Shown one piece after another: positions 12,820 to 44,688 of a stretch of DNA of 64,000 nt. The notes below the pieces were generated by a model. That model saw nothing but the letters and a program-made list of their open reading frames with translations, did no database searches and was not told the origin of the DNA. A program made the translations under genes and the position numbers. How positions within the stretch are numbered: the first letter of the stretch is position 1; every line of letters begins with the position of its first letter. The stretch is from a virus: positions 32,887 to 96,886 of the IMG/VR virus record IMGVR_UViG_3300043399_000633. One strand, 5' to 3'.

Positions 12820-13371
12820 ATGATTTACTATCAAAAATTAGATATTGAAAATTTTGAAGTAATAATAGATGAAATTTTGAGATTTGCTGCTCCTAAGATT
12901 CCTCTGACTCAGAGGTATTTGGATGCAAATCCATTAGATATTTATAGATACACACCAAAATTATTTTGTTTTCTTCGTGAAAATTTTCACAAATTTCCTA
13001 TACTATTTAGGTTCTATAATAGCCCTCCGTATTACCAAATGCCACCTCATATTGACAATCATCCGGAAGCTGAGAATAAAATTGGGTTTAACATTCCATT
13101 GCTAGGTACAAAAGACACCACGATGAATTACTATTCAACCCCGGATGACAATTTAAGACTCACGTATACAGGATTTGCTAACATGCCAGCGCAAACGTTG
13201 AAAGACTATAGTAAACTAACCCTTTTAGCTAGCTTTGAACTTGATAAACCTACATTAGTCAGAACAGATATAATTCATGACATCGTTAATCAAAAAGATT
13301 CAAACAGACTGATTTTGGGTATGAAATGTTTAGGCACTACCTTCGAAGAAGTATATAAATTTAAATCATGA
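12820..13371 (+). CDS. 2OG-Fe(II) oxygenase-like protein
   Basis: HID...HDI.N...R; ATG just after late promoter. Confidence 0.6.
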   Translation: MIYYQKLDIENFEVIIDEILRFAAPKIPLTQRYLDANPLDIYRYTPKLFCFLRENFHKFPILFRFYNSPPYYQMPPHIDNHPEAENKIGFNIPLLGTKDTTMNYYSTPDDNLRLTYTGFANMPAQTLKDYSKLTLLASFELDKPTLVRTDIIHDIVNQKDSNRLILGMKCLGTTFEEVYKFKS

Positions 13372-14132
13372 ATAACTATTTTTCAGCCACTCCAAAGTCT
13401 TTATTTATCCTACAACTAGTTTCGATGATGATACTAGTATTAGGAACTCCCCATGTAGATTTAAATTGGGTATACGTTATTTTATCTGTCATATTTTTTT
13501 ATTTATACAGTATCATAGGCGTAAGTATGATGTTACACCGATATTATAGTCACAAAAGTTTTAATCTCAATTTTTATCTTAAATGGGTATTGACTATTTT
13601 TGCATTACTGGCGAGCCGTGGAAGTCCATTGGGTTGGGTATATATACATAGAATTCACCACGCTACTAGTGATACTGAAAAAGATCCACATAGCCCACAT
13701 TGTGACAATTTCAGGTTTATAGGGTTCAGCCCAAATTATGACGATACCAAAAAAATAAACTATTTTATCGTCAAAGACCTATTAACACCTGCGCACATAA
13801 ACATTGACAAATATTACATGTTAATCATAATTGGATTCTTGCTAATGTTGGGTTTGATAAACTACAATCTAGTAGTTTACATATGGGCATTGCCTGTGCT
13901 TATGGTTAGCATAAGTCAAACAGCATTTAATTATTTTGCACACATGCACGGTTATAGAAATTTTGAGACCAGAGATCGTAGTACAAACAATGTTTACTTG
14001 TGGCCATTTATACTAGGTGATGCCTGGCATAATAATCATCATGCTCATGCAGAAAAATTGTCTACTAAAGTAAAACCATATGAACTAGATCCATTGGCTA
14101 GTATAATTACTTGGTTCAAGCTTGATAAATAA
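13368..14132 (+). CDS. Membrane fatty-acid desaturase (delta-9-like)
   Basis: His boxes HRYYSH, HRIHH, WHNNHH; TM helices. Confidence 0.9.
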   Translation: MNNYFSATPKSLFILQLVSMMILVLGTPHVDLNWVYVILSVIFFYLYSIIGVSMMLHRYYSHKSFNLNFYLKWVLTIFALLASRGSPLGWVYIHRIHHATSDTEKDPHSPHCDNFRFIGFSPNYDDTKKINYFIVKDLLTPAHINIDKYYMLIIIGFLLMLGLINYNLVVYIWALPVLMVSISQTAFNYFAHMHGYRNFETRDRSTNNVYLWPFILGDAWHNNHHAHAEKLSTKVKPYELDPLASIITWFKLDK

Positions 14133-25214: not shown

Positions 25215-25289
25215 AGGGGGTTCGCCAAGTGGTAAGGCATCTGATTTTGATTCAGACATTCGGTGGTTCGATCCCATCACCCTCTGCCA
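25215..25289 (+). tRNA. tRNA-Gln(TTG)
   Basis: Cloverleaf, CCA. Confidence 0.9.
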
Positions 25290-25290
25290 A

Positions 25291-25430
25291 TCTAATATAT
25301 TCTAGCACTTAGAGAATGACTGCACGGGACTGTGGAGCAAAGCAGGAACCCGGCGGCAATAATTGGGTGGTAGCTTGAACCCTACTTCTTGATTCTCATT
25401 CTGGTTCACTGAGTGCTAGAATATATTAGA
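25291..25430 (+). repeat. Long-stem hairpin family member
   Basis: 21-bp stem enclosing about 98 nt. Confidence 0.7.
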
Positions 25431-25435
25431 TACAA

Positions 25436-25510
25436 GCCTGGTTAGCTCAGCGGTAGAGCAGCGTCTTGATAAGGCGTTGGTCGGTGGTTCGACCCCACCA
25501 CTAGGCACCA
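25436..25510 (+). tRNA. tRNA-Ile(GAT)
   Basis: Cloverleaf, CCA. Confidence 0.9.
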
Positions 25511-25518
25511 CAAATTAT

Positions 25519-25595
25519 GGGCCATTAGTTCAGTTGGTAGAACGCCTGCCTTGCAAGTAGGATGTCGTGGGTTCGATTCCCACATGTGTCCACCA
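25519..25595 (+). tRNA. tRNA-Ala(TGC), bulged acceptor
   Basis: Cloverleaf, G3.U70, CCA. Confidence 0.85.
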
Positions 25596-26231: not shown

Positions 26232-26326
26232 GGAAAGTAATGCAGGCATATTGGTGTGCCGACTAGTTTCGAAAGCTAGGTTCCCATGTGACATGGGATG
26301 GGGTTCGATTCCTCTGCTTTCCGCCA
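26232..26326 (+). tRNA. tRNA-Ser(CGA), 8/4-type fold
   Basis: 8-bp acceptor, 4-bp T stem, 6-bp D stem, long variable arm, GCCA. Confidence 0.75.
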
Positions 26327-26330
26327 GTTT

Positions 26331-26392
26331 TAGGATGCTAACAGCAAATTTTAACATCAAACTGCTAATTTGAAACGTTAAAACGCATCCTG
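26331..26392 (+). ncRNA. ACAGCAA-stem (Y-RNA-like) RNA with anticodon-loop cargo (GCT)
   Basis: TAGGATGC/GCATCCTG stem, TAACAGCAA, TCAAA-CTGCTAA-TTTGA. Confidence 0.65.
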
Positions 26393-26404
26393 TGATATAT
26401 CTGT

Positions 26405-26481
26405 TGGGGTGACATACGACGGGAAGTATACTGGGCTTTGAACTCAGGTCTTAGTCGGTTCGAATCCGACCACCCTTGCCA
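26405..26481 (+). tRNA. tRNA-Gln(TTG), atypical D arm
   Basis: Cloverleaf, CCA. Confidence 0.8.
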
Positions 26482-26518
26482 AATTTTTTGTCAGCATAGT
26501 TTGTCACTAAATAGTGAT

Positions 26519-27343
26519 ATGAATATTTCCTATGCTGATAATGGATGGACTGTGTTCATCAACGATGATCTAACCACATTGTCTAACGACGAAATAAAGC
26601 AAGTTGCTAAATTCGTTGTTACAAATATGGTTGTTGTGTTCAAAAAACAAAACCTTACTCCAGAACAGGAATTAAAATTCTGTAGAGTGATAGGCAATCA
26701 CCAGTACTACCCTGCTTCGTATGAACGAGGAAAGCATATCAGATTGAATGACGGTATACTTAGGGTGACTGGTAAAAAAAATGAATATGGCGAACCTGGA
26801 CTTTTTGGCCATACTTCTGCACTTGATTGGCATGCCAATCAACCTAGTAACAAAGAACGTAAGCCATTGATTTGGTTGTACGGTGCAGAAGGGACTAAGG
26901 GTTCAAGAACAAGCTGGCTCAACAATATTGCTAGCTATCAGGATTTGCCCACTGATCTCAAAAATGAAATTGATAGTCTACAAGTTTTTTGTGGATACGC
27001 AAAAGGCAAGTATTCTAATAGTTCTTATTTTGTAGAACATGTCAATGAGTCTAATCCCATTGATCTTGTTCAAACAAACAAAGAAGGTAAGAAGGGATTG
27101 TTTTTTCCATTCTTACAAATATTCGGCTTTAAAGATAAAGACGAACAGTATTTCAACAAAATAATGCAACAATTGATCGATCATGTCGTTCAAGAAAAGT
27201 ACATGTATCATCATGATTGGGATGACGGAGATGTTGTCATTTCAGAACAAATATTAAGCATCCACAAACGTTGGGCTTTTGATGATATGGAAAATCGTGT
27301 GTTGCATAGAATTGCGTTTGACTATTCAAACGTATACAAATAA
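26519..27343 (+). CDS. TauD/TfdA-family dioxygenase
   Basis: VVVFK.Q.L, WHAN, W..GDVVI...HKR, R.L.R. Confidence 0.85.
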   Translation: MNISYADNGWTVFINDDLTTLSNDEIKQVAKFVVTNMVVVFKKQNLTPEQELKFCRVIGNHQYYPASYERGKHIRLNDGILRVTGKKNEYGEPGLFGHTSALDWHANQPSNKERKPLIWLYGAEGTKGSRTSWLNNIASYQDLPTDLKNEIDSLQVFCGYAKGKYSNSSYFVEHVNESNPIDLVQTNKEGKKGLFFPFLQIFGFKDKDEQYFNKIMQQLIDHVVQEKYMYHHDWDDGDVVISEQILSIHKRWAFDDMENRVLHRIAFDYSNVYK

Positions 27344-32027: not shown

Positions 32028-32084
32028 TAGGATGCTAACAGCAAATTTTACTCAACTTTCAATTGGTGAAAAAAATGCATCCTG
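32028..32084 (+). ncRNA. ACAGCAA-stem RNA with anticodon-loop cargo (TTC)
   Basis: TAGGATGC/GCATCCTG, CAA-CTTTCAA-TTG. Confidence 0.65.
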
Positions 32085-32252: not shown

Positions 32253-32966
32253 ATGAATTACATAAAACATTATAATATACTTATTAATCGGGCAAAAATC
32301 AGATCATTGACAGAAGATTACGAAACGCACCATATTGTGCCCAAATGTTTGGGTGGAACTGATGATTTTGATAATCTTGTTAGATTGACTCCTGAGGAGC
32401 ATTATACTGCTCATCTATTGTTGGTAAAAATCTATAATAGCCCACCATTAGTATACGCCGCACAAATGATGGCGGTGAGTAGTAAACATCACCGAAGGAA
32501 TAACAAAATGTATGGCTGGCTAAAACGCCGGTACATTGAAATATGCCGCCAACGGATAGGAAATAAAAACGGTAGCTTTGGTAGACATTGGTATACCAAT
32601 CCTTCAACATTAGAAAGCGGTAAATTTGAGGATAGTAAAGTACCTGCAGGGTGGATAAAGGGCCGCAGAATTAAAAAAGAATTAAAACCTAGAAAAACTA
32701 CTACATGCGGATCATGTGGTAAGAATACAAATTCTCACAAGGCCAAATTGTGTAGTGATTGTAAACCGCTTAGTTCGGTGAGACAAGAAAAACAAAAAAT
32801 GTTTTTTTCAGATGAAGAAAAAATAAATGCTTTAAAACTTTTTGACGGAAAAATACGCCCTGCTCTGTTTCATTTAGGATTAAATGACAGTGGGGTACAT
32901 TACAGATGCATGAAAAAATTAAAAGCGTCTTTATACCCTCTGGCTACGAACCAGTTGAAAGGTTAA
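32253..32966 (+). CDS. HNH homing endonuclease
   Basis: ETHHIVPKCLGG.D...NLVRLTPEEHY.AH; paralog of 29435 gene. Confidence 0.9.
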   Translation: MNYIKHYNILINRAKIRSLTEDYETHHIVPKCLGGTDDFDNLVRLTPEEHYTAHLLLVKIYNSPPLVYAAQMMAVSSKHHRRNNKMYGWLKRRYIEICRQRIGNKNGSFGRHWYTNPSTLESGKFEDSKVPAGWIKGRRIKKELKPRKTTTCGSCGKNTNSHKAKLCSDCKPLSSVRQEKQKMFFSDEEKINALKLFDGKIRPALFHLGLNDSGVHYRCMKKLKASLYPLATNQLKG

Positions 32967-33004: not shown

Positions 33005-33155
33005 AATTTAAGGATAGACGGTAGATTAGAGTCCCGAGCAATCTAACATATCAGGGGATATGTGAAGAACAACGTGATTGTAAGGTCGTTAAACTCATCT
33101 ATACGAGACAATCCATCGAGGTCGGGTAACGCCGAATAGGTGGGCGCCAAATATT

Positions 33156-33230
33156 GCTGATATAACACAGAGGTAGTGTACTTTCTTGGTAAGAAAGAGG
33201 TCACTGGTTCGAATCCAGTTATCAGCACCA
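33156..33230 (+). tRNA. tRNA-Thr(GGT)
   Basis: Cloverleaf, CCA. Confidence 0.9.
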
Positions 33231-33234
33231 GTTA

Positions 33235-33346
33235 GGGGATACTTACAGCAACATCTATCAAACGATAGGTAGTTGGTTCGATTCCAACTTTTTCCACATG
33301 GGAAAATAGCTCATTAGGTAGAGCATTCGTCAAGAAATGTATCCCG
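33235..33346 (+). ncRNA. YrlA-like RNA (circularly permuted tRNA domain on ACAGCAA stem)
   Basis: GGGATAC/GTATCCC stem; order T arm, closed acceptor hairpin, D arm. Confidence 0.75.
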
Positions 33347-33459
33347 TTTTATTAGCAAGAATTCTTGCAAGAAGAAACCACTGCGACCTTAGCCTGGGCG
33401 GGCGGTATGTCAGTTACGAAACAGTTGGGTAAGAGTCCTTATGCCTAGGCACAAATTTT

Positions 33460-33587
33460 GGAGATGTGATGTAATGGTAGCATAGCACAGCAAAAACCGT
33501 ATTCTGTTTTAGCATACGTGCAGCAACATCTTAGCTATCCCTCTGTGAAAGGGCTTGACCGTGGTTCGATTCCCGGCGTCTCCACCA
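33460..33587 (+). ncRNA. CCA-ended tRNA body with permuted (G)CAGCAA stem and His-like anticodon hairpin
   Basis: GGAGATG/CGTCTCC-ACCA; CGTATTCT..AGCATACG-TGCAGCAA; CCCT-CTGTGAA-AGGG. Confidence 0.65.
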
Positions 33588-34588: not shown

Positions 34589-34690
34589 GGGATGACTACA
34601 GCAACACAAATTTCTGCAGCCATATTTTGCAGGCCAGCCCAGTAGGGGTGTGTCGTGGGTTCGACTCTCGGCTTTAGACACATCATCCAG
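34589..34690 (+). ncRNA. ACAGCAA-stem RNA with three-hairpin cargo including a T-arm-like hairpin
   Basis: GGATGA/TCATCC, CTACAGCAA, GGGTTCGACTC. Confidence 0.6.
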
Positions 34691-40310: not shown

Positions 40311-41201
40311 CAAGGGCAGCTTAATGTCCTACACGGTATGGTTCGCCCAGCTGTGTGAAGAATAAGTCAGGTGACTGACCCAAAGGAGGTAAGCCTACAT
40401 AACTCCGCTAGTAATAGTTCATTTAAGCAAGCCTGCTCACACCCGCGAGGGTGCGTTCACTGAGAAGACCGGTGGATGTAACAATGAAGCAAGTGTGTTG
40501 GAAAGAATGTCTGTTTAAGTCCCCGCAAGGGTAAGACAGGCAGACAGAGAGTAACAGGTGGTGCTGACCTCAACACAAAACCAACTTGCGAATTGGTATG
40601 AGAAAGGGTAGTATTATGATCCGAAGGGTCGCACCTAAGGGTTGTAGTGCAGTATGAGTGGTTAGTGGGCATGTAGTAATACATGTACACCGATCGCAAA
40701 ATACGACTGAGTAGTCCGCGAGACAAAAGGTACGTGGTGTGTTGTATTGAGTAGAGCAAAACTTTATTCAGCAACTGAGGCAGCACATCATAGTAGGTCA
40801 AATGTAGATCAATGGTAGATCGTCTGTATGATGAACAGAATGCTGTCGGTTCAAGTCCGATCATTTTAACAAAAACGCAAAGACTGCCTCGGTTGTATGT
40901 GAAAAACATCTAATACTTGACTCTTCGGAGAATCAAGTCTGACGTAACTCGCAAGGTGAAATCAGTTTATGCAGGATATTTCGTAGCCCGCAAGGCTTAA
41001 TGGACCGCAAGTTCAACGGAATGGAAAGCGTAGAATAGCATACAATGTCAAGTCTACTGCCTGACTCTAAACGGCGATGTTGGTAACAGACTAGGTTACT
41101 GTGTAATAACAGGGCTTAGTGGATATCTAGAGAAGGTTGGCTCGCAAGGCTAACTATAATGCTAGAGGTGTTACTCGGTAAGGATGTAATCTCAGTCCTC
41201 C
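40311..41201 (+). ncRNA. GOLLD-like giant ncRNA with embedded tRNA-like domain (40797..40870)
   Basis: About 890 nt without a plus-strand ORF, many GNRA hairpins (CGCAAG/CGCGAG), embedded cloverleaf, phage tRNA-cluster context; recognised by eye. Confidence 0.7.
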
Positions 41202-41243
41202 ACTATTCTAAAGCGCATTAATATTAGTGTGTTTCAGAATAGT
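41202..41243 (+). repeat. Empty long-stem hairpin family member (3' flank of giant ncRNA)
   Basis: ACTATTCTAAAGCGCATTA/TAGTGTGTTTCAGAATAGT, 4-nt loop. Confidence 0.7.
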
Positions 41244-41262
41244 AGCATAAATAAAATTTATT

Positions 41263-41339
41263 GCCCCGGTGACGGAATTGGTATACGTGTTGGTCTTAGA
41301 AGCCAAATTTTAGGAGTTCGACTCTCCTCTGGGGCACCA
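41263..41339 (+). tRNA. tRNA-Leu(TAG), short variable loop
   Basis: Cloverleaf, CCA. Confidence 0.85.
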
Positions 41340-41354
41340 ATTAAGTTAGCAATT

Positions 41355-41762
41355 ATGATAAAAATAAATAGCGATAGGTCTTGTGGTGAATGTACTATGT
41401 GCTGTCAAGGTCACTTGACAGGATCTGCACATGGATTTGAATTCGGTCCTAACAAACCATGTCATTGGATAAGAGACAGTGGCTGCGGGATCTATCCTTA
41501 CAGACCTGATACACCTTGCAAATCGTTTAAATGTGAATGGAAAGTCAATAAAGAAATTCCTGAAGAATTTAGACCTGACAAATGTAAGGCTATTTTTGTC
41601 AAAAGGCCTATATCTGAAACAGAATACAGATTAGATGTAGTAGAATCAGGCGGCACACTAAGCGCCGATATATTGCATTTAATTATGATTTTATTTCAAA
41701 GTCATAAATACGATCATGTTCAATATCAGCGAAATGGTGCTTGGTATGAATTAAAAAGATAA
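41355..41762 (+). CDS. YkgJ-like cysteine-cluster protein
   Basis: CGECTMCC, C.IY..RP..C..F.C. Confidence 0.75.
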   Translation: MIKINSDRSCGECTMCCQGHLTGSAHGFEFGPNKPCHWIRDSGCGIYPYRPDTPCKSFKCEWKVNKEIPEEFRPDKCKAIFVKRPISETEYRLDVVESGGTLSADILHLIMILFQSHKYDHVQYQRNGAWYELKR

Positions 41763-41764
41763 TT

Positions 41765-41840
41765 GGGGGATTAGCTCATCTGGGAGAGCGACGGTTTTGC
41801 AAGCCGTAGGTGATCGGTTCGAGTCCGATATCTTCCACCA
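41765..41840 (+). tRNA. tRNA-Ala(TGC)
   Basis: G3.U70, CCA. Confidence 0.9.
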
Positions 41841-41846
41841 GACAAT

Positions 41847-41922
41847 TGCGGCGTGGAGAAATGGTATCTCATCAGTCTCATAAGCTGAAGGTAGTTGGTT
41901 CGATTCCAACCGTTCGCAACCA
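41847..41922 (+). tRNA. tRNA-Met(CAT), initiator-like body
   Basis: TGCGGCGTGGAG start, AACCA end; bulged acceptor. Confidence 0.8.
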
Positions 41923-41968
41923 AATAAATAAAATTTTATATGTTAACTAATTTAGCCTGGAGCAAAAA

Positions 41969-42100
41969 ATGGCAAAAAGCGTAAGTGAACGAAAGATTGT
42001 AATGAAGCGTACTAGTCAAGGTGGAAATAAACCCAAAACTAGTTCAATGACTAAAAGCCAAAAGAACTCTCATAAAAAGTATAGGGGCCAAGGAAAATGA
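41969..42100 (+). CDS. Small basic protein (43 aa, ends KKYRGQGK)
   Basis: GGAG RBS; TGA overlaps next ATG; below ORF-track cutoff. Confidence 0.7.
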   Translation: MAKSVSERKIVMKRTSQGGNKPKTSSMTKSQKNSHKKYRGQGK

Positions 42101-42282
42101 GTGGCAAAGGTAGCAGACCGCGCCCATTTAGTGTTTCGCAAGAAGAATACGAAAAACGATGGGATGCTATTTTTGGTCGAGATTTGGAAAATGAAACGGT
42201 CAATGAATACGAAGATGAAGCATTAAAAGATGCTTTCAAGCAGTCAAAATTACAGCAAGAAATTAATTCAAAAAATAAATAA
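42097..42282 (+). CDS. Small hypothetical phage protein
   Basis: Translationally coupled; GKGSRPRP...WDAIF. Confidence 0.7.
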   Translation: MSGKGSRPRPFSVSQEEYEKRWDAIFGRDLENETVNEYEDEALKDAFKQSKLQQEINSKNK

Positions 42283-42286
42283 ATTT

Positions 42287-42362
42287 GGGTAGTTGAGCAG
42301 AGAGGTTATGCACCTCCCTTACAAGGAGGACGATGTTGGTTCGAGTCCAACACTACCCACCA
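42287..42362 (+). tRNA. tRNA-Val(TAC)
   Basis: Cloverleaf, CCA. Confidence 0.85.
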
Positions 42363-42408
42363 AACATATATGTTAGCAGAGAATAATGTCTGCTTAACAT
42401 TGCACAAT

Positions 42409-42482
42409 GCGGGATTAGTTTATCGGTAAAACGAAACCTTGCCAAGGTTTAGTGACCAGTTCGATTCTGGTATCCCGCTCCA
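42409..42482 (+). tRNA. tRNA-Gly(GCC)
   Basis: Cloverleaf, CCA. Confidence 0.9.
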
Positions 42483-42505
42483 AAATTATCAACTAAGGAA
42501 ATGTA

Positions 42506-42721
42506 ATGACCGAAAGTCGAGCAAGATATTCAAACGAAAAAGCCAGTGACATGATTGGTAACAAGTTTGATTTAGTGCTTATCGCAGCCCTCAGAATACG
42601 AGAATTGAAAAAGGGCGTTAAACCTAAAATTCAATGTAATGATGGTCCAACAGTGACCGCACTTAAAGAGATAGAACAAGGCCTAGTAGGTCGAGATTAT
42701 CTGAAAAGAATTCGAAAATAA
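42506..42721 (+). CDS. rpoZ: RNA polymerase omega subunit homolog
   Basis: IGNKFDLVLIAA.R.REL, PTV.AL.EI..G. Confidence 0.9.
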   Translation: MTESRARYSNEKASDMIGNKFDLVLIAALRIRELKKGVKPKIQCNDGPTVTALKEIEQGLVGRDYLKRIRK

Positions 42722-42784
42722 CTTTACCCAAAATGATTGATTGCAATACGTGTGTAGTGTATACTTCATGTATTGAATGATTTA

Positions 42785-42942
42785 AGGATCGGTACAGCAA
42801 CATTCTGCTATTATAGTGAATGGTCTGGATACGGTATGGTGTTAGCTGGAGGGGTCACCCTGTGAAGGCTAACATTGAAATACTACCGGACGAACTCAGA
42901 GTGATGGCCTGAGTATAATAAAAGCAGTCGAAAACGATCCTG
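42785..42942 (+). ncRNA. ACAGCAA-stem RNA with large multibranch cargo
   Basis: AGGATCG/CGATCCT, GTACAGCAA. Confidence 0.7.
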
Positions 42943-42954
42943 TTGTTTTTGTTT

Positions 42955-43188
42955 TAGGATGATTACAGCAAACTAAAAAAAATATCTACTCCAGTTAATG
43001 CAGTAGAAGATGGCCCGGAAGGCAAGTGGAAACACTTCTAGTAGAAATACTAGCGTTAAAGGAACTGATGACCTTGGAAAGACAAGTATGCGCCATCGCA
43101 GACGCAAGGATGGATAGGCTTGAGGAACTGAACCGATGTACTGGGGATGAGGTCAAGCAGAAAATAAAAACCAGTTCCGTTCATCCTG
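42955..43188 (+). ncRNA. ACAGCAA-stem RNA with large multi-hairpin cargo
   Basis: TAGGATGA/TCATCCTG, TTACAGCAA. Confidence 0.7.
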
Positions 43189-43197
43189 TTAGATTAA

Positions 43198-43259
43198 TTG
43201 AATGCTAACAGCAATTTTTAAAAACTCAAATCGCAACTTTGATCTAAAAACGCATTCAG
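43198..43259 (+). ncRNA. ACAGCAA-stem RNA abutting the RBS of the Ro60-like gene
   Basis: TTGAATGC/GCATTCAG, TAACAGCAA, TCAAA-TCGCAAC-TTTGA. Confidence 0.7.
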
Positions 43260-43272
43260 AAAGGAAAATAAA

Positions 43273-44688
43273 ATGAACGCATTTGTTAACGCAGTAGCAA
43301 ACCAAGAAGCACGTACCGCTAACGGTATGAAGGCTCGTAAGTCTAGTGCTAACGCACTGGTCGATCTGTTCTACAACATCGGTGCAAGCCGTGGTAAGAA
43401 CATTGTTCCGGCATTCACTGCTGCCTATGTCCAAGATAAGGACTTGGCATTGCGTATCGCATTGTGGGCGCGTGATGCCCGTAGTGGTGCAGGTGAACGT
43501 CAACTGTTCCGTGATATCTTGACTCATCTTGAAAAGACTGATCCCGATGCGGCAGTTCGTTTGATGAACAAGATTCCTGAACTTGGTCGTTTTGATGACC
43601 TGTTGGTCTTCAAGTCTAAGGACATGAAGGCTAAGGCTTACACGCTGCTTGGTGACAACCTTCGTGCTAAGAATGGACTTGCGGCAAAGTGGACTCCTCG
43701 TAAGGGTGAAGTCGCACGTGAAATCCGTGAATTCTTTGGCATGACTCCAAAGCAATACCGTAAGACTTTGGTTGGAATGACCAGTGTCGTTGAATCGCGA
43801 ATGTGTGCCAACGACTGGGATAACATCAACTTCAGCCACGTTCCTTCACAGGCTGCACGTATTTACAAGAAGGCGTTCAACCGTCATTCTGTAAAGTTTG
43901 CAGAATACGTACAGAAGTTGGTCAGCGGCGATAAGACCGTTAAGGTCAATGCCGGTGCAGTTTTCCCGCACGAAGTTTTGAAGGACATCGTTACCCCTTA
44001 TGGTCGTACGACCTTGGGTAAGACTGAGTTGGATCACTTGACCGCTCAGTGGGATGCGCTTCCTAACTACATGAACGATGCGAACATTCTGCCTATGGTA
44101 GACGTTTCGGGTTCTATGACCTGCCCTGCAGGCAAGGACACTAGCGTTACCTGCTTGAATGTTGCAGTATCGTTGGGTCTGTATCTTGCTGATAAGAACA
44201 AGGGTGCCTTCAAGGATACTTTCTTGACTTTCAGCGGCTCACCTGAACTGTTGACCCTAAAGGGCAACATTGTTCAAAAGGTTGATCAAATGATCAAGTC
44301 TAAGTGGGCAATGGATACTAACCTGCACAAGGCTTTCGACAAGATCCTAAGCGTGGCTGTTGCGAACAATGTTCCTGACACTGACATGCCTAAGATGGTG
44401 TTGATCCTTTCGGACATGCAGTTCAACCAATGTGTTGATCACGATGATTCTGCTATGCAGATGATCGAACGCAAGTACCGTAACGCAGGTTACACTGTGC
44501 CTAGCGTGGTCTTCTGGAACCTAAACTCAAGTGGTAACGTTCCAGTCAAGAGTGACAAGTCTGGTGCGGCTCTAGTCTCTGGCTTCAGCCCAAGCATCAT
44601 GGCAAGCATTCTTGGTGCAGACCCTCAGGAGTTCACTCCTGAAGGCATGATGTTGAAGACCATCATGGCAGATCGCTACAACTGCTAA
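43273..44688 (+). CDS. Ro60/TROVE-like RNA-binding protein (DUF2828-type) with C-terminal vWA domain
   Basis: RD.R.G.GER..F, AKW.PR, Y+K.L, DVSGSM MIDAS, FLTFS..P, ILSDMQF, FWNL, SGFSP. Confidence 0.8.
   Translation: MNAFVNAVANQEARTANGMKARKSSANALVDLFYNIGASRGKNIVPAFTAAYVQDKDLALRIALWARDARSGAGERQLFRDILTHLEKTDPDAAVRLMNKIPELGRFDDLLVFKSKDMKAKAYTLLGDNLRAKNGLAAKWTPRKGEVAREIREFFGMTPKQYRKTLVGMTSVVESRMCANDWDNINFSHVPSQAARIYKKAFNRHSVKFAEYVQKLVSGDKTVKVNAGAVFPHEVLKDIVTPYGRTTLGKTELDHLTAQWDALPNYMNDANILPMVDVSGSMTCPAGKDTSVTCLNVAVSLGLYLADKNKGAFKDTFLTFSGSPELLTLKGNIVQKVDQMIKSKWAMDTNLHKAFDKILSVAVANNVPDTDMPKMVLILSDMQFNQCVDHDDSAMQMIERKYRNAGYTVPSVVFWNLNSSGNVPVKSDKSGAALVSGFSPSIMASILGADPQEFTPEGMMLKTIMADRYNC

Follow-up and report, generated by a model that had tools for sequence, protein, structure and literature searches.

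The stretch of DNA described here, a window of 64,000 nucleotides (nt) from IMG/VR record IMGVR_UViG_3300043399_000633 (positions 32,887 to 96,886), is the last 64 kb of a 96.9-kb viral contig that is estimated to be 27% complete and comes from a giant (jumbo) freshwater phage. It holds 41 tRNA genes and one GOLLD RNA (ARAGORN, Rfam), all on the plus strand, and within this array an element of 110 bases at 33236-33345(+), termed RNA E; window coordinates are used throughout. RNA E belongs to a large uncatalogued RNA family encoded beside a Ro60-shaped ring protein, which in the window is the product of a DUF2828/DUF7788 gene. The parts of RNA E, the tRNA gene preceding it, the protein gene and the other copies of the family's closing stem with its ACAGCAA motif (the 'handle') are compiled in Table 1. 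The spacing after the CCA of the upstream tRNA is 4-6 nt in relatives. Both flanks of RNA E are rich in A/U, and no promoter-like or terminator-like site of its own was found adjoining it.

Table 1. Parts of RNA E and related features of the window (bp, base pairs; MFE, minimum free energy).
Feature	Position	Strand	Remarks
tRNA-Thr(GGT)	33156-33230	+	ARAGORN and Rfam; 5 nt separate the end of its encoded CCA from the handle
Closing ('handle') stem, 5' strand GGGATAC	33236-33242	+	pairs with 33339-33345, 7 bp; followed by a TT spacer
ACAGCAA heptamer, presumed protein-recognition element	33245-33251	+	followed by CAT
Cis hairpin CTATC-AAAC-GATAG, surrogate of an anticodon arm	33255-33268	+	part of the MFE fold; followed by GTA
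ACGAT, equivalent of nt 39-43, 3' strand of the alternative long-range anticodon-like stem	33262-33266	+	pairs with 33326-33330
T arm GTTGG-TTCGATT-CCAAC	33272-33288	+	from sequence and YrlA alignment
Acceptor sealed as a hairpin, TTTTTCC/GGGAAAA, loop ACAT	33289-33306	+	7 bp including one U.G; no free CCA end
U8-A9 linker and D arm GCTC-ATTAGGTA-GAGC	33307-33324 (D arm 33309-33324)	+	with A14, G18, G19 and A21
A-rich 14-nt 3' linker: A26, TTCGT (nt 27-31), CAAGAAAT	33325-33338	+	opposite ACAGCAA
Closing stem, 3' strand GTATCCC	33339-33345	+	followed by GUUUUAUU
Minimal handle RNA TAGGATGC ... GCATCCTG with ACAGCAA	26331-26392	+	same array
Further handle copies of the array	32028-32084 and 34589-34688		
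Three tandem handle RNAs	42785-42941, 42955-43188, 43200-43261	+	immediately upstream of the gene for the Ro60-like protein
Gene for the 471-residue DUF2828/DUF7788 protein, Ro60 fold, presumed partner	43273-44688	+	fold and family matches

RNA E folds with -34.7 kcal/mol (z -5.3), a value equalled by none of 200 shuffled sequences. Both strands of the handle, the T arm and the D arm are present where the original prediction, made from the letters of the window, had placed them. The sealed acceptor hairpin is likewise there, although the 6 bp and the 5-nt loop first drawn for it are better replaced by 7 bp, one of them U.G, and the loop ACAT; and while the list of parts stands, it had missed the cis hairpin between heptamer and T arm as well as the long-range pairing that competes with it. 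The features of a tRNA core, namely U8, A14, G18G19, the T loop UUCGA and a complementary pair 15-48 (here U-A), are all found in RNA E. A 7-nt anticodon loop is absent from it, an AAAC tetraloop standing in its place; the acceptor loop is ACAT and holds no CCA; and neither ARAGORN nor the Rfam tRNA model calls RNA E a tRNA.

Canonical YrlA consists of a terminal stem with the motif GNCGAAN0-1G, a second stem, an anticodon-like stem and a core in the order T arm, acceptor, D arm (PMC4201824; bioRxiv 10.1101/312249). That this permuted order makes RNA E a molecule of YrlA architecture was borne out: positions 27-81 of the Rfam YrlA model (RF02553) align locally to 33268-33324 with 29.9 bits (E 2.7e-4). 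As a family call the search did not succeed, the score being under the 69-bit gathering threshold, and since the alignment is limited to these positions it is only the T-acceptor-D core that matches. Relatives of RNA E score 34-46 bits against the same cut-off, and in 18 loci harbouring strong members of the family the gathering threshold was never reached. Searched at gathering thresholds, Rfam returned tRNAs and GOLLD in the whole window and no family for the handle. Other full-length YrlA matches on the contig were rejected as junctions of tandem tRNAs. The Rsr-binding motif GNCGAAN0-1G is absent from RNA E, whose 5' strand reads GGGATAC-TT-ACAGCAA. On the 96.9-kb contig there is neither a TROVE (PF05731) match nor an RtcB gene, findings that carry little weight for a contig only 27% complete.

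The family was collected with a pattern combining ACAGCAA, the T loop and the start of the D arm at suitable spacing, which matched at least 120 stretches in IMG/VR and 100 stretches in a collection of bacterial species genomes; a tighter pattern yielded 44 close relatives of RNA E. Among the 111 distinct viral matches listed, 92 have a closing stem of at least 7 bp in register, as against 19% with the 5' strand shuffled. In an alignment of 83 viral sequences pre-filtered for the closing stem (A1), 91.5% of the cells are paired, compared with 62% after shuffling and ≈ 40% with the partners slid, and double changes occur at 22 of 28 pairs, including all seven pairs of the closing stem, all seven of the acceptor hairpin and three of the five in the T stem; the D stem is invariable in A1 because the pattern had fixed its letters. 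As A1 had been filtered for the closing stem, the count was repeated on an independent set (A4) of 131 copies in the bacterial-contig loci, found with a model built from A1. Here, in an alignment fitted to the A1 model and to that extent somewhat favouring the structure, 91.9% of the cells are paired, 26 of 28 pairs have double changes, and the closing stem is paired to 95%. The closing stem and the acceptor, which has 7-8 bp in most relatives, covary at all seven pairs in both sets, and the T arm, 99% paired, has three to four covarying pairs across them. Altogether, all helices are maintained by compensatory changes in over 200 relatives on viral and bacterial contigs.

Two further features of the family deserve separate mention. 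For the Levitt pair 15-48, 74 of 83 sequences have complementary nucleotides (G-C 39, A-U 24, U-A 11) where 33 would be expected, and 81 of 83 have G46, which directly supports a tRNA-like core on comparative grounds. Secondly, while the stem adjoining ACAGCAA varies freely, the heptamer itself is nearly invariant, being exact in 113 of the 131 model matches in bacterial contigs, which include tandem copies that the pattern had not selected.

At the junction, the nucleotides following the D stem pair family-wide with those preceding the variable loop. Their register is that of tRNA positions 27-31/39-43, and this anticodon-like long-range helix covaries at five of five pairs, pair 28-42 being formed in 78 of 83 sequences. 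Many relatives retain in cis a lower anticodon stem with a 7-nt anticodon-like loop and resemble whole tRNAs in which the acceptor end has been sealed and the anticodon stem opened in its 5' strand. Such loops, in columns 41-47 of A1, read CTTTTAA (Lys), CTTGTAA (Thr), CTTCTAA (Arg), CTGATAA (Ile), TTGTTAA (Asn), CTGTCAA (Asp) and CTGCCAA or CTTCCAA (Gly), the upper pairs of the stem being supplied by the strand after the D arm. In RNA E, the long-range stem comprises one U.U and 4 bp and overlaps the cis hairpin. The latter has a loop of 4-6 nt in RNA E and its close relatives, and its stem occurs there as CTATC/GATAG, CTAAC/GTTAG, ACATC/GATGT and ACAAC/GTTGT, the changes being compensatory at three of the five pairs, with no variant disrupted; these were tallied from the raw listing because the MAFFT alignment A3 misplaces the 5' strand of the hairpin. 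Position 42 changes together with both its cis and its long-range partner, probably in one event.

The presumed protein partner matches Pfam DUF7788, DUF2828 and PHROG 850 ('RNA-binding protein') and has no TROVE match; its relatives form 6,104 clusters at 50% identity. An AlphaFold2 model computed with 104 diverse sequences reached a predicted local distance difference test score (pLDDT) of 92.4 and a predicted template modelling score (pTM) of 0.90, and in a Foldseek search of the PDB each of the 13 top-ranking matches was a structure of Ro60. The residues of MIDAS, the metal ion-dependent adhesion site, are invariant. A sequence profile reached Ro60 marginally (E 0.03), and a PDB sequence search with the single protein returned nothing, so that only the profile and fold searches matched. 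Given Foldseek matches to Ro60 and no Pfam TROVE match, the modelled protein is of the Ro60 fold and belongs to a family separate from TROVE. Annotation of DUF2828/DUF7788 proteins in phage genomes goes no further than the fold, 'RNA-binding' or 'Ro-like', with no known function, and a literature search found no description of the ACAGCAA handle or of an RNA partner for DUF2828.

What ties the RNA to this protein is genomic linkage, seen along three lines of evidence that are independent of one another: bacterial contigs, near-complete IMG/VR records and cultured phages. In stretches of up to 8 kb around 100 loci in bacterial contigs, many of which, with their tRNA arrays or transfer-messenger RNA, are probably phages or prophages, a DUF2828 gene lies no more than 4 kb from the RNA in 71, on the same strand in every case (71/71). 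The RNA is upstream of the gene in 60 of the 71, the median gap amounting to 325 nt, and RtcB is found in 28-29 of the 100 loci. Of the 20 IMG/VR records at least 90% complete among the matches listed, 16 encode a DUF2828/DUF7788 protein, the weaker protein matches in near-complete records being of the same families, and all 12 near-complete records whose RNA has a stem of at least 7 bp encode it; the four records that lack the protein are those whose pattern match has no such stem and is not a handle RNA. The protein was also found in 711 records of cultured phages, and the RNA model matched in nine of 11 sampled cultured phage lineages with the protein. In Enterococcus phage Porthos, two RNAs (102.7 and 78.8 bits) lie 310 and 490 nt upstream of the gene, and in mycobacteriophage Krypton555 an RNA of 90.4 bits lies 100 nt downstream of it; further matches occur in phiM12, Synechococcus BUCT-ZZ01, a Felix O1-type phage, Bacillus Izhevsk, Vibrio V07, a Staphylococcus phage and Listeria LMTA-34. 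The suggestion that the handle is a Ro-type protein site is hence supported indirectly but strongly, by the Ro60-fold protein encoded in the window and by the linkage across the family.

Seven bacterial-contig loci (L201, L204, L234, L240, L257, L265 and L279) have three tandem handle or tRNA-like RNAs beside one DUF2828 gene, and loci combining tandem RNAs, DUF2828 and RtcB are reminiscent of the rsr-yrlBA-rtcBA operon of Salmonella. Two families of neighbouring proteins, of 503 residues (L247:2682-4190) and 331 residues (L281:3582-4574), recur near DUF2828 in 15 and 17 of the 100 loci, respectively, with no sequence match in Pfam or the PDB. Clusters of neighbouring open reading frames of 487, 146 and 243 residues were discarded as antisense artefacts of the DUF2828 and RtcB genes.

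Taken together, RNA E is probably a Y-RNA-like non-coding RNA of YrlA architecture, with a handle that is the predicted site of the DUF2828/DUF7788 ring and a body that is a permuted tRNA. It would be transcribed together with the tRNA array and released at its A/U-rich flanks. The two ends pair as a short helix, which with the adjoining single-stranded ACAGCAA makes up the constant handle to which the Ro60-fold ring protein may bind. The body may be viewed as a circularly permuted tRNA in which T arm, sealed acceptor, D arm and the core contacts are retained; through these contacts it could display a tRNA elbow, but it could be neither charged nor used in decoding. Ro60-Y RNA particles suggest, by analogy, that the handle would serve to anchor the ring, and the tRNA-like module to recruit a tRNA-binding factor or to act as a decoy for one. 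Transcription and processing of RNA E, protein binding and the identity of an effector are inferred. RNA E has the terminal stem with a conserved motif, the separate module and the linkage to a Ro60-fold gene that characterize a Y RNA in the broad sense.

Several observations weigh against this assignment. RNA E is not adjacent to the Ro60-like gene, 9.9 kb separating the two; 29 of the 100 bacterial-contig loci have no DUF2828 gene in the stretch examined; and two of the 11 cultured phages with the protein gave no match to the RNA model. ACAGCAA is unlike the known Ro60/Rsr motifs GGUCCGA and GNCGAA (PMC4201824). In the two-dimensional energy model, the cis hairpin of RNA E is favoured over the long-range anticodon-like stem by 8.6 kcal/mol. 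A literature search found no binding data for any DUF2828 protein. Finally, the sole signal in RNA libraries is one contig of 151 nt at depth 3, which covers tRNA-Thr and the 5' half of RNA E. The public RNA runs entered as assembled contigs from relatives, matching in small shares, and are uninformative on ends, strand and expression level; the stretch 33305-33331, left uncovered by their contigs, is a gap of no evidential weight.

Among other explanations, the one that survives best, although we consider it unlikely, is a free-standing tRNA decoy or sponge that is independent of the Ro60-like protein, the handle serving only as a clamp or processing signal by which the permuted tRNA is sealed, and the tRNA-like body mopping up a tRNA-binding enzyme of the host or a nuclease of its defence. 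It can be rationalized in this way that the tRNA core is the best-conserved part of the family, that intact 7-nt anticodon-like loops persist in many relatives, and that RNA E lies within a tRNA array far from the protein gene. An invariant single-stranded heptamer would be superfluous in a mere clamp, however; hairpins without cargo but with the same handle stand directly before the protein gene, and the adjacency to DUF2828 on the same strand, seen in 71 of 100 loci, is difficult to account for if nothing links the two functionally.

With rather less probability still, RNA E could be the precursor of a permuted tRNA, in which RNase P opens the acceptor loop and trimming or CCA addition yields a chargeable tRNA-like product in two pieces, joined through the handle. 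The acceptor stem has the 7 bp of real tRNAs, and the YrlA of M. smegmatis, likewise with a 7-bp stem, is cleaved by RNase P and tailed with CCA (bioRxiv 10.1101/312249). NCCA follows directly 3' of the 7-nt 3' strand of the acceptor in 12 of 83 relatives, where about 1.3 would be expected, RNA E not being one of them. YrlA-type RNAs have been proposed to derive from tandem tRNA genes (bioRxiv 10.1101/312249), an origin with which these relics agree equally well. The AAAC tetraloop in place of an anticodon loop, the acceptor loop ACAT without CCA, and the failure of ARAGORN and the Rfam tRNA model to call RNA E all speak against a precursor.

It is highly improbable that the handle is a processing or insulator cassette whose flanking stems are cut by a nuclease so as to free the cargo from a polycistronic tRNA transcript, with no dedicated protein involved. 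The position of RNA E just behind the CCA of a tRNA, between A/U-rich flanks and with no promoter or terminator of its own, would suit such a role, as would the closing stems of 14-21 bp in phiM12. Most stems, on the other hand, have 7-9 bp and are too short for RNase III, and processing signals leave unexplained both the linkage to a Ro60-fold gene and the gene-adjacent copies outside tRNA arrays. A non-functional relic of tandem tRNA duplication or rearrangement in a fast-evolving array is strongly disfavoured and scarcely credible: tandem tRNAs do yield similar T-spacer-D layouts that score with YrlA and the A1-based model, and some relatives keep CCA remnants, but more than 200 copies on unrelated contigs preserve four to five helices by compensation together with an invariant heptamer foreign to tRNA, a conservation not expected of a decaying pseudogene.

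RNA E is not the only copy in its array, as can be seen from Table 1, and the trio of tandem handle RNAs directly before the Ro60-like gene recurs in the same layout in Listeria phage LMTA-34. The handle RNAs of phiM12 (L168:12324-12470, 13043-13133 and 13576-13713) have closing stems of 14-21 bp, where 7-9 bp are usual, and carry the heptamer variants ACAGCAC and CCAGCAA; a minimal handle hairpin lies just 5' of the DUF2828 start codon in this phage. Close to RNA E, the spacers 33006-33155 and 33354-33452 are matched at 95% identity or more by contigs from other public runs (33007-33108 by run contig X10, 33354-33452 by run contig X1), and the 3' end of the former reads GGGCGCCA, resembling the 3' end of a tRNA; both segments are probably further small RNAs of the array. 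At 33460-33584 lies a tRNA-like gene (30.8 bits with the Rfam tRNA model) whose acceptor, D and T arms are normal and whose anticodon arm is replaced by an insert of 66 nt that holds ACAGCAA and GCAGCAA.

A common gene order is seen at 40734-44688 of the window and at L167:13471-16521 of Listeria LMTA-34: a large ornate RNA, tRNAs, the handle trio and the Ro60-like gene. The large RNA is GOLLD in the window and ROOL in Listeria phages, and the shared order is a hint that GOLLD/ROOL may be functionally connected with the Ro60-like system. In LMTA-34, L167:13471-14022 matches Rfam ROOL over its full length with 82.7 bits (E 1.4e-16), the cut-off being 99.1. In a 2025 paper on Listeria phage CKA15, the corresponding region, ~26,236-26,727 (OR088597.1), tentatively annotated with three open reading frames, is reported as by far the most transcribed. 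This top non-coding region was considered as a source of handle RNAs and rejected, as it corresponds to the ROOL-like RNA upstream of the handle trio, which occupies 25,289-25,553 of OR088597.1; by its sequence, the abundant RNA of P100-type phages looks like ROOL RNA. The same paper reports a likeness of the homologue CKA15_055 to Rsr by HHpred and its occurrence in purified virions, and speculates that abundant non-coding RNAs nearby may be Y RNAs.

Ro60 and its Y RNAs form a classic RNA-surveillance particle. To our knowledge, the bacterial counterpart is known only as TROVE-domain proteins with GNCGAA-type RNAs. RNA E ties the YrlA design to a different, near-invariant handle and to DUF2828/DUF7788. 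It is conceivable, if on balance doubtful, that DUF2828/DUF7788 rings and ACAGCAA RNAs make up a second widespread particle of the Ro/Y type, the RNAs being interchangeable cassettes for the display of tRNA parts, which phages would use to bait or sense tRNA-cutting defences of the host or to guide RtcB-type repair of the phage's own tRNAs, and that in RNA E the protein sets a switch between the cis and the long-range pairing. On this tentative proposal, RNA E would show a tRNA elbow only, and many relatives whole anticodon arms (Lys, Thr, Arg, Ile, Asn, Asp, Gly and others). The carriers include well-studied and applied phages, namely those of the Felix O1 and Listeria P100/A511 types, Enterococcus phages, a mycobacteriophage and the rhizobiophage phiM12, and as RNA and protein are found together in cultured phages, the idea is directly testable.

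Known systems resemble RNA E and its presumed partner to different degrees. Red algae and some archaea have circularly permuted tRNA genes that also encode the 3' half of the tRNA first and have their acceptor ends joined by a short linker, but these genes are processed to normal decoding tRNAs, whereas RNA E has neither an anticodon loop nor CCA and carries a handle in addition. [quoted passage not shown] In Thermus phage phiLo (PMC12135203; PDB 9KOP, 9L5Y), Ro60 is a canonical TROVE protein, and the RNAs Yrl1 and Yrl2 are of the stem-bulge-stem type with a CGAA motif and no tRNA-like module (PMC12135203).

The closest likeness is to YrlA. Both have the order T arm, sealed acceptor hairpin, UA and D arm with a near-identical D/T consensus, the contacts of a tRNA core, and a distal terminal stem with a conserved purine-rich motif on its 5' strand; an anticodon-like stem formed from the strands that enter and leave this core is common to YrlA and the family of RNA E, though in RNA E itself the cis hairpin competes with it. 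The genes of both kinds of RNA lie in the neighbourhood of a Ro60-fold gene, frequently in multiple copies and frequently in the company of RtcB. They differ in that the motif of the RNA E family is ACAGCAA just inside a stem of 7-9 bp and not GNCGAAN0-1G, in that RNA E has a cis hairpin instead of a second internal stem, many relatives having a full anticodon-like arm, and in that the linked protein is DUF2828/DUF7788 and not Pfam TROVE. With a different motif, a score under the threshold and no TROVE neighbour, RNA E is therefore not a member of RF02553; judged by its sequence, it would work like a Y RNA of the YrlA type, yet is to be classed as a new variant outside that family.
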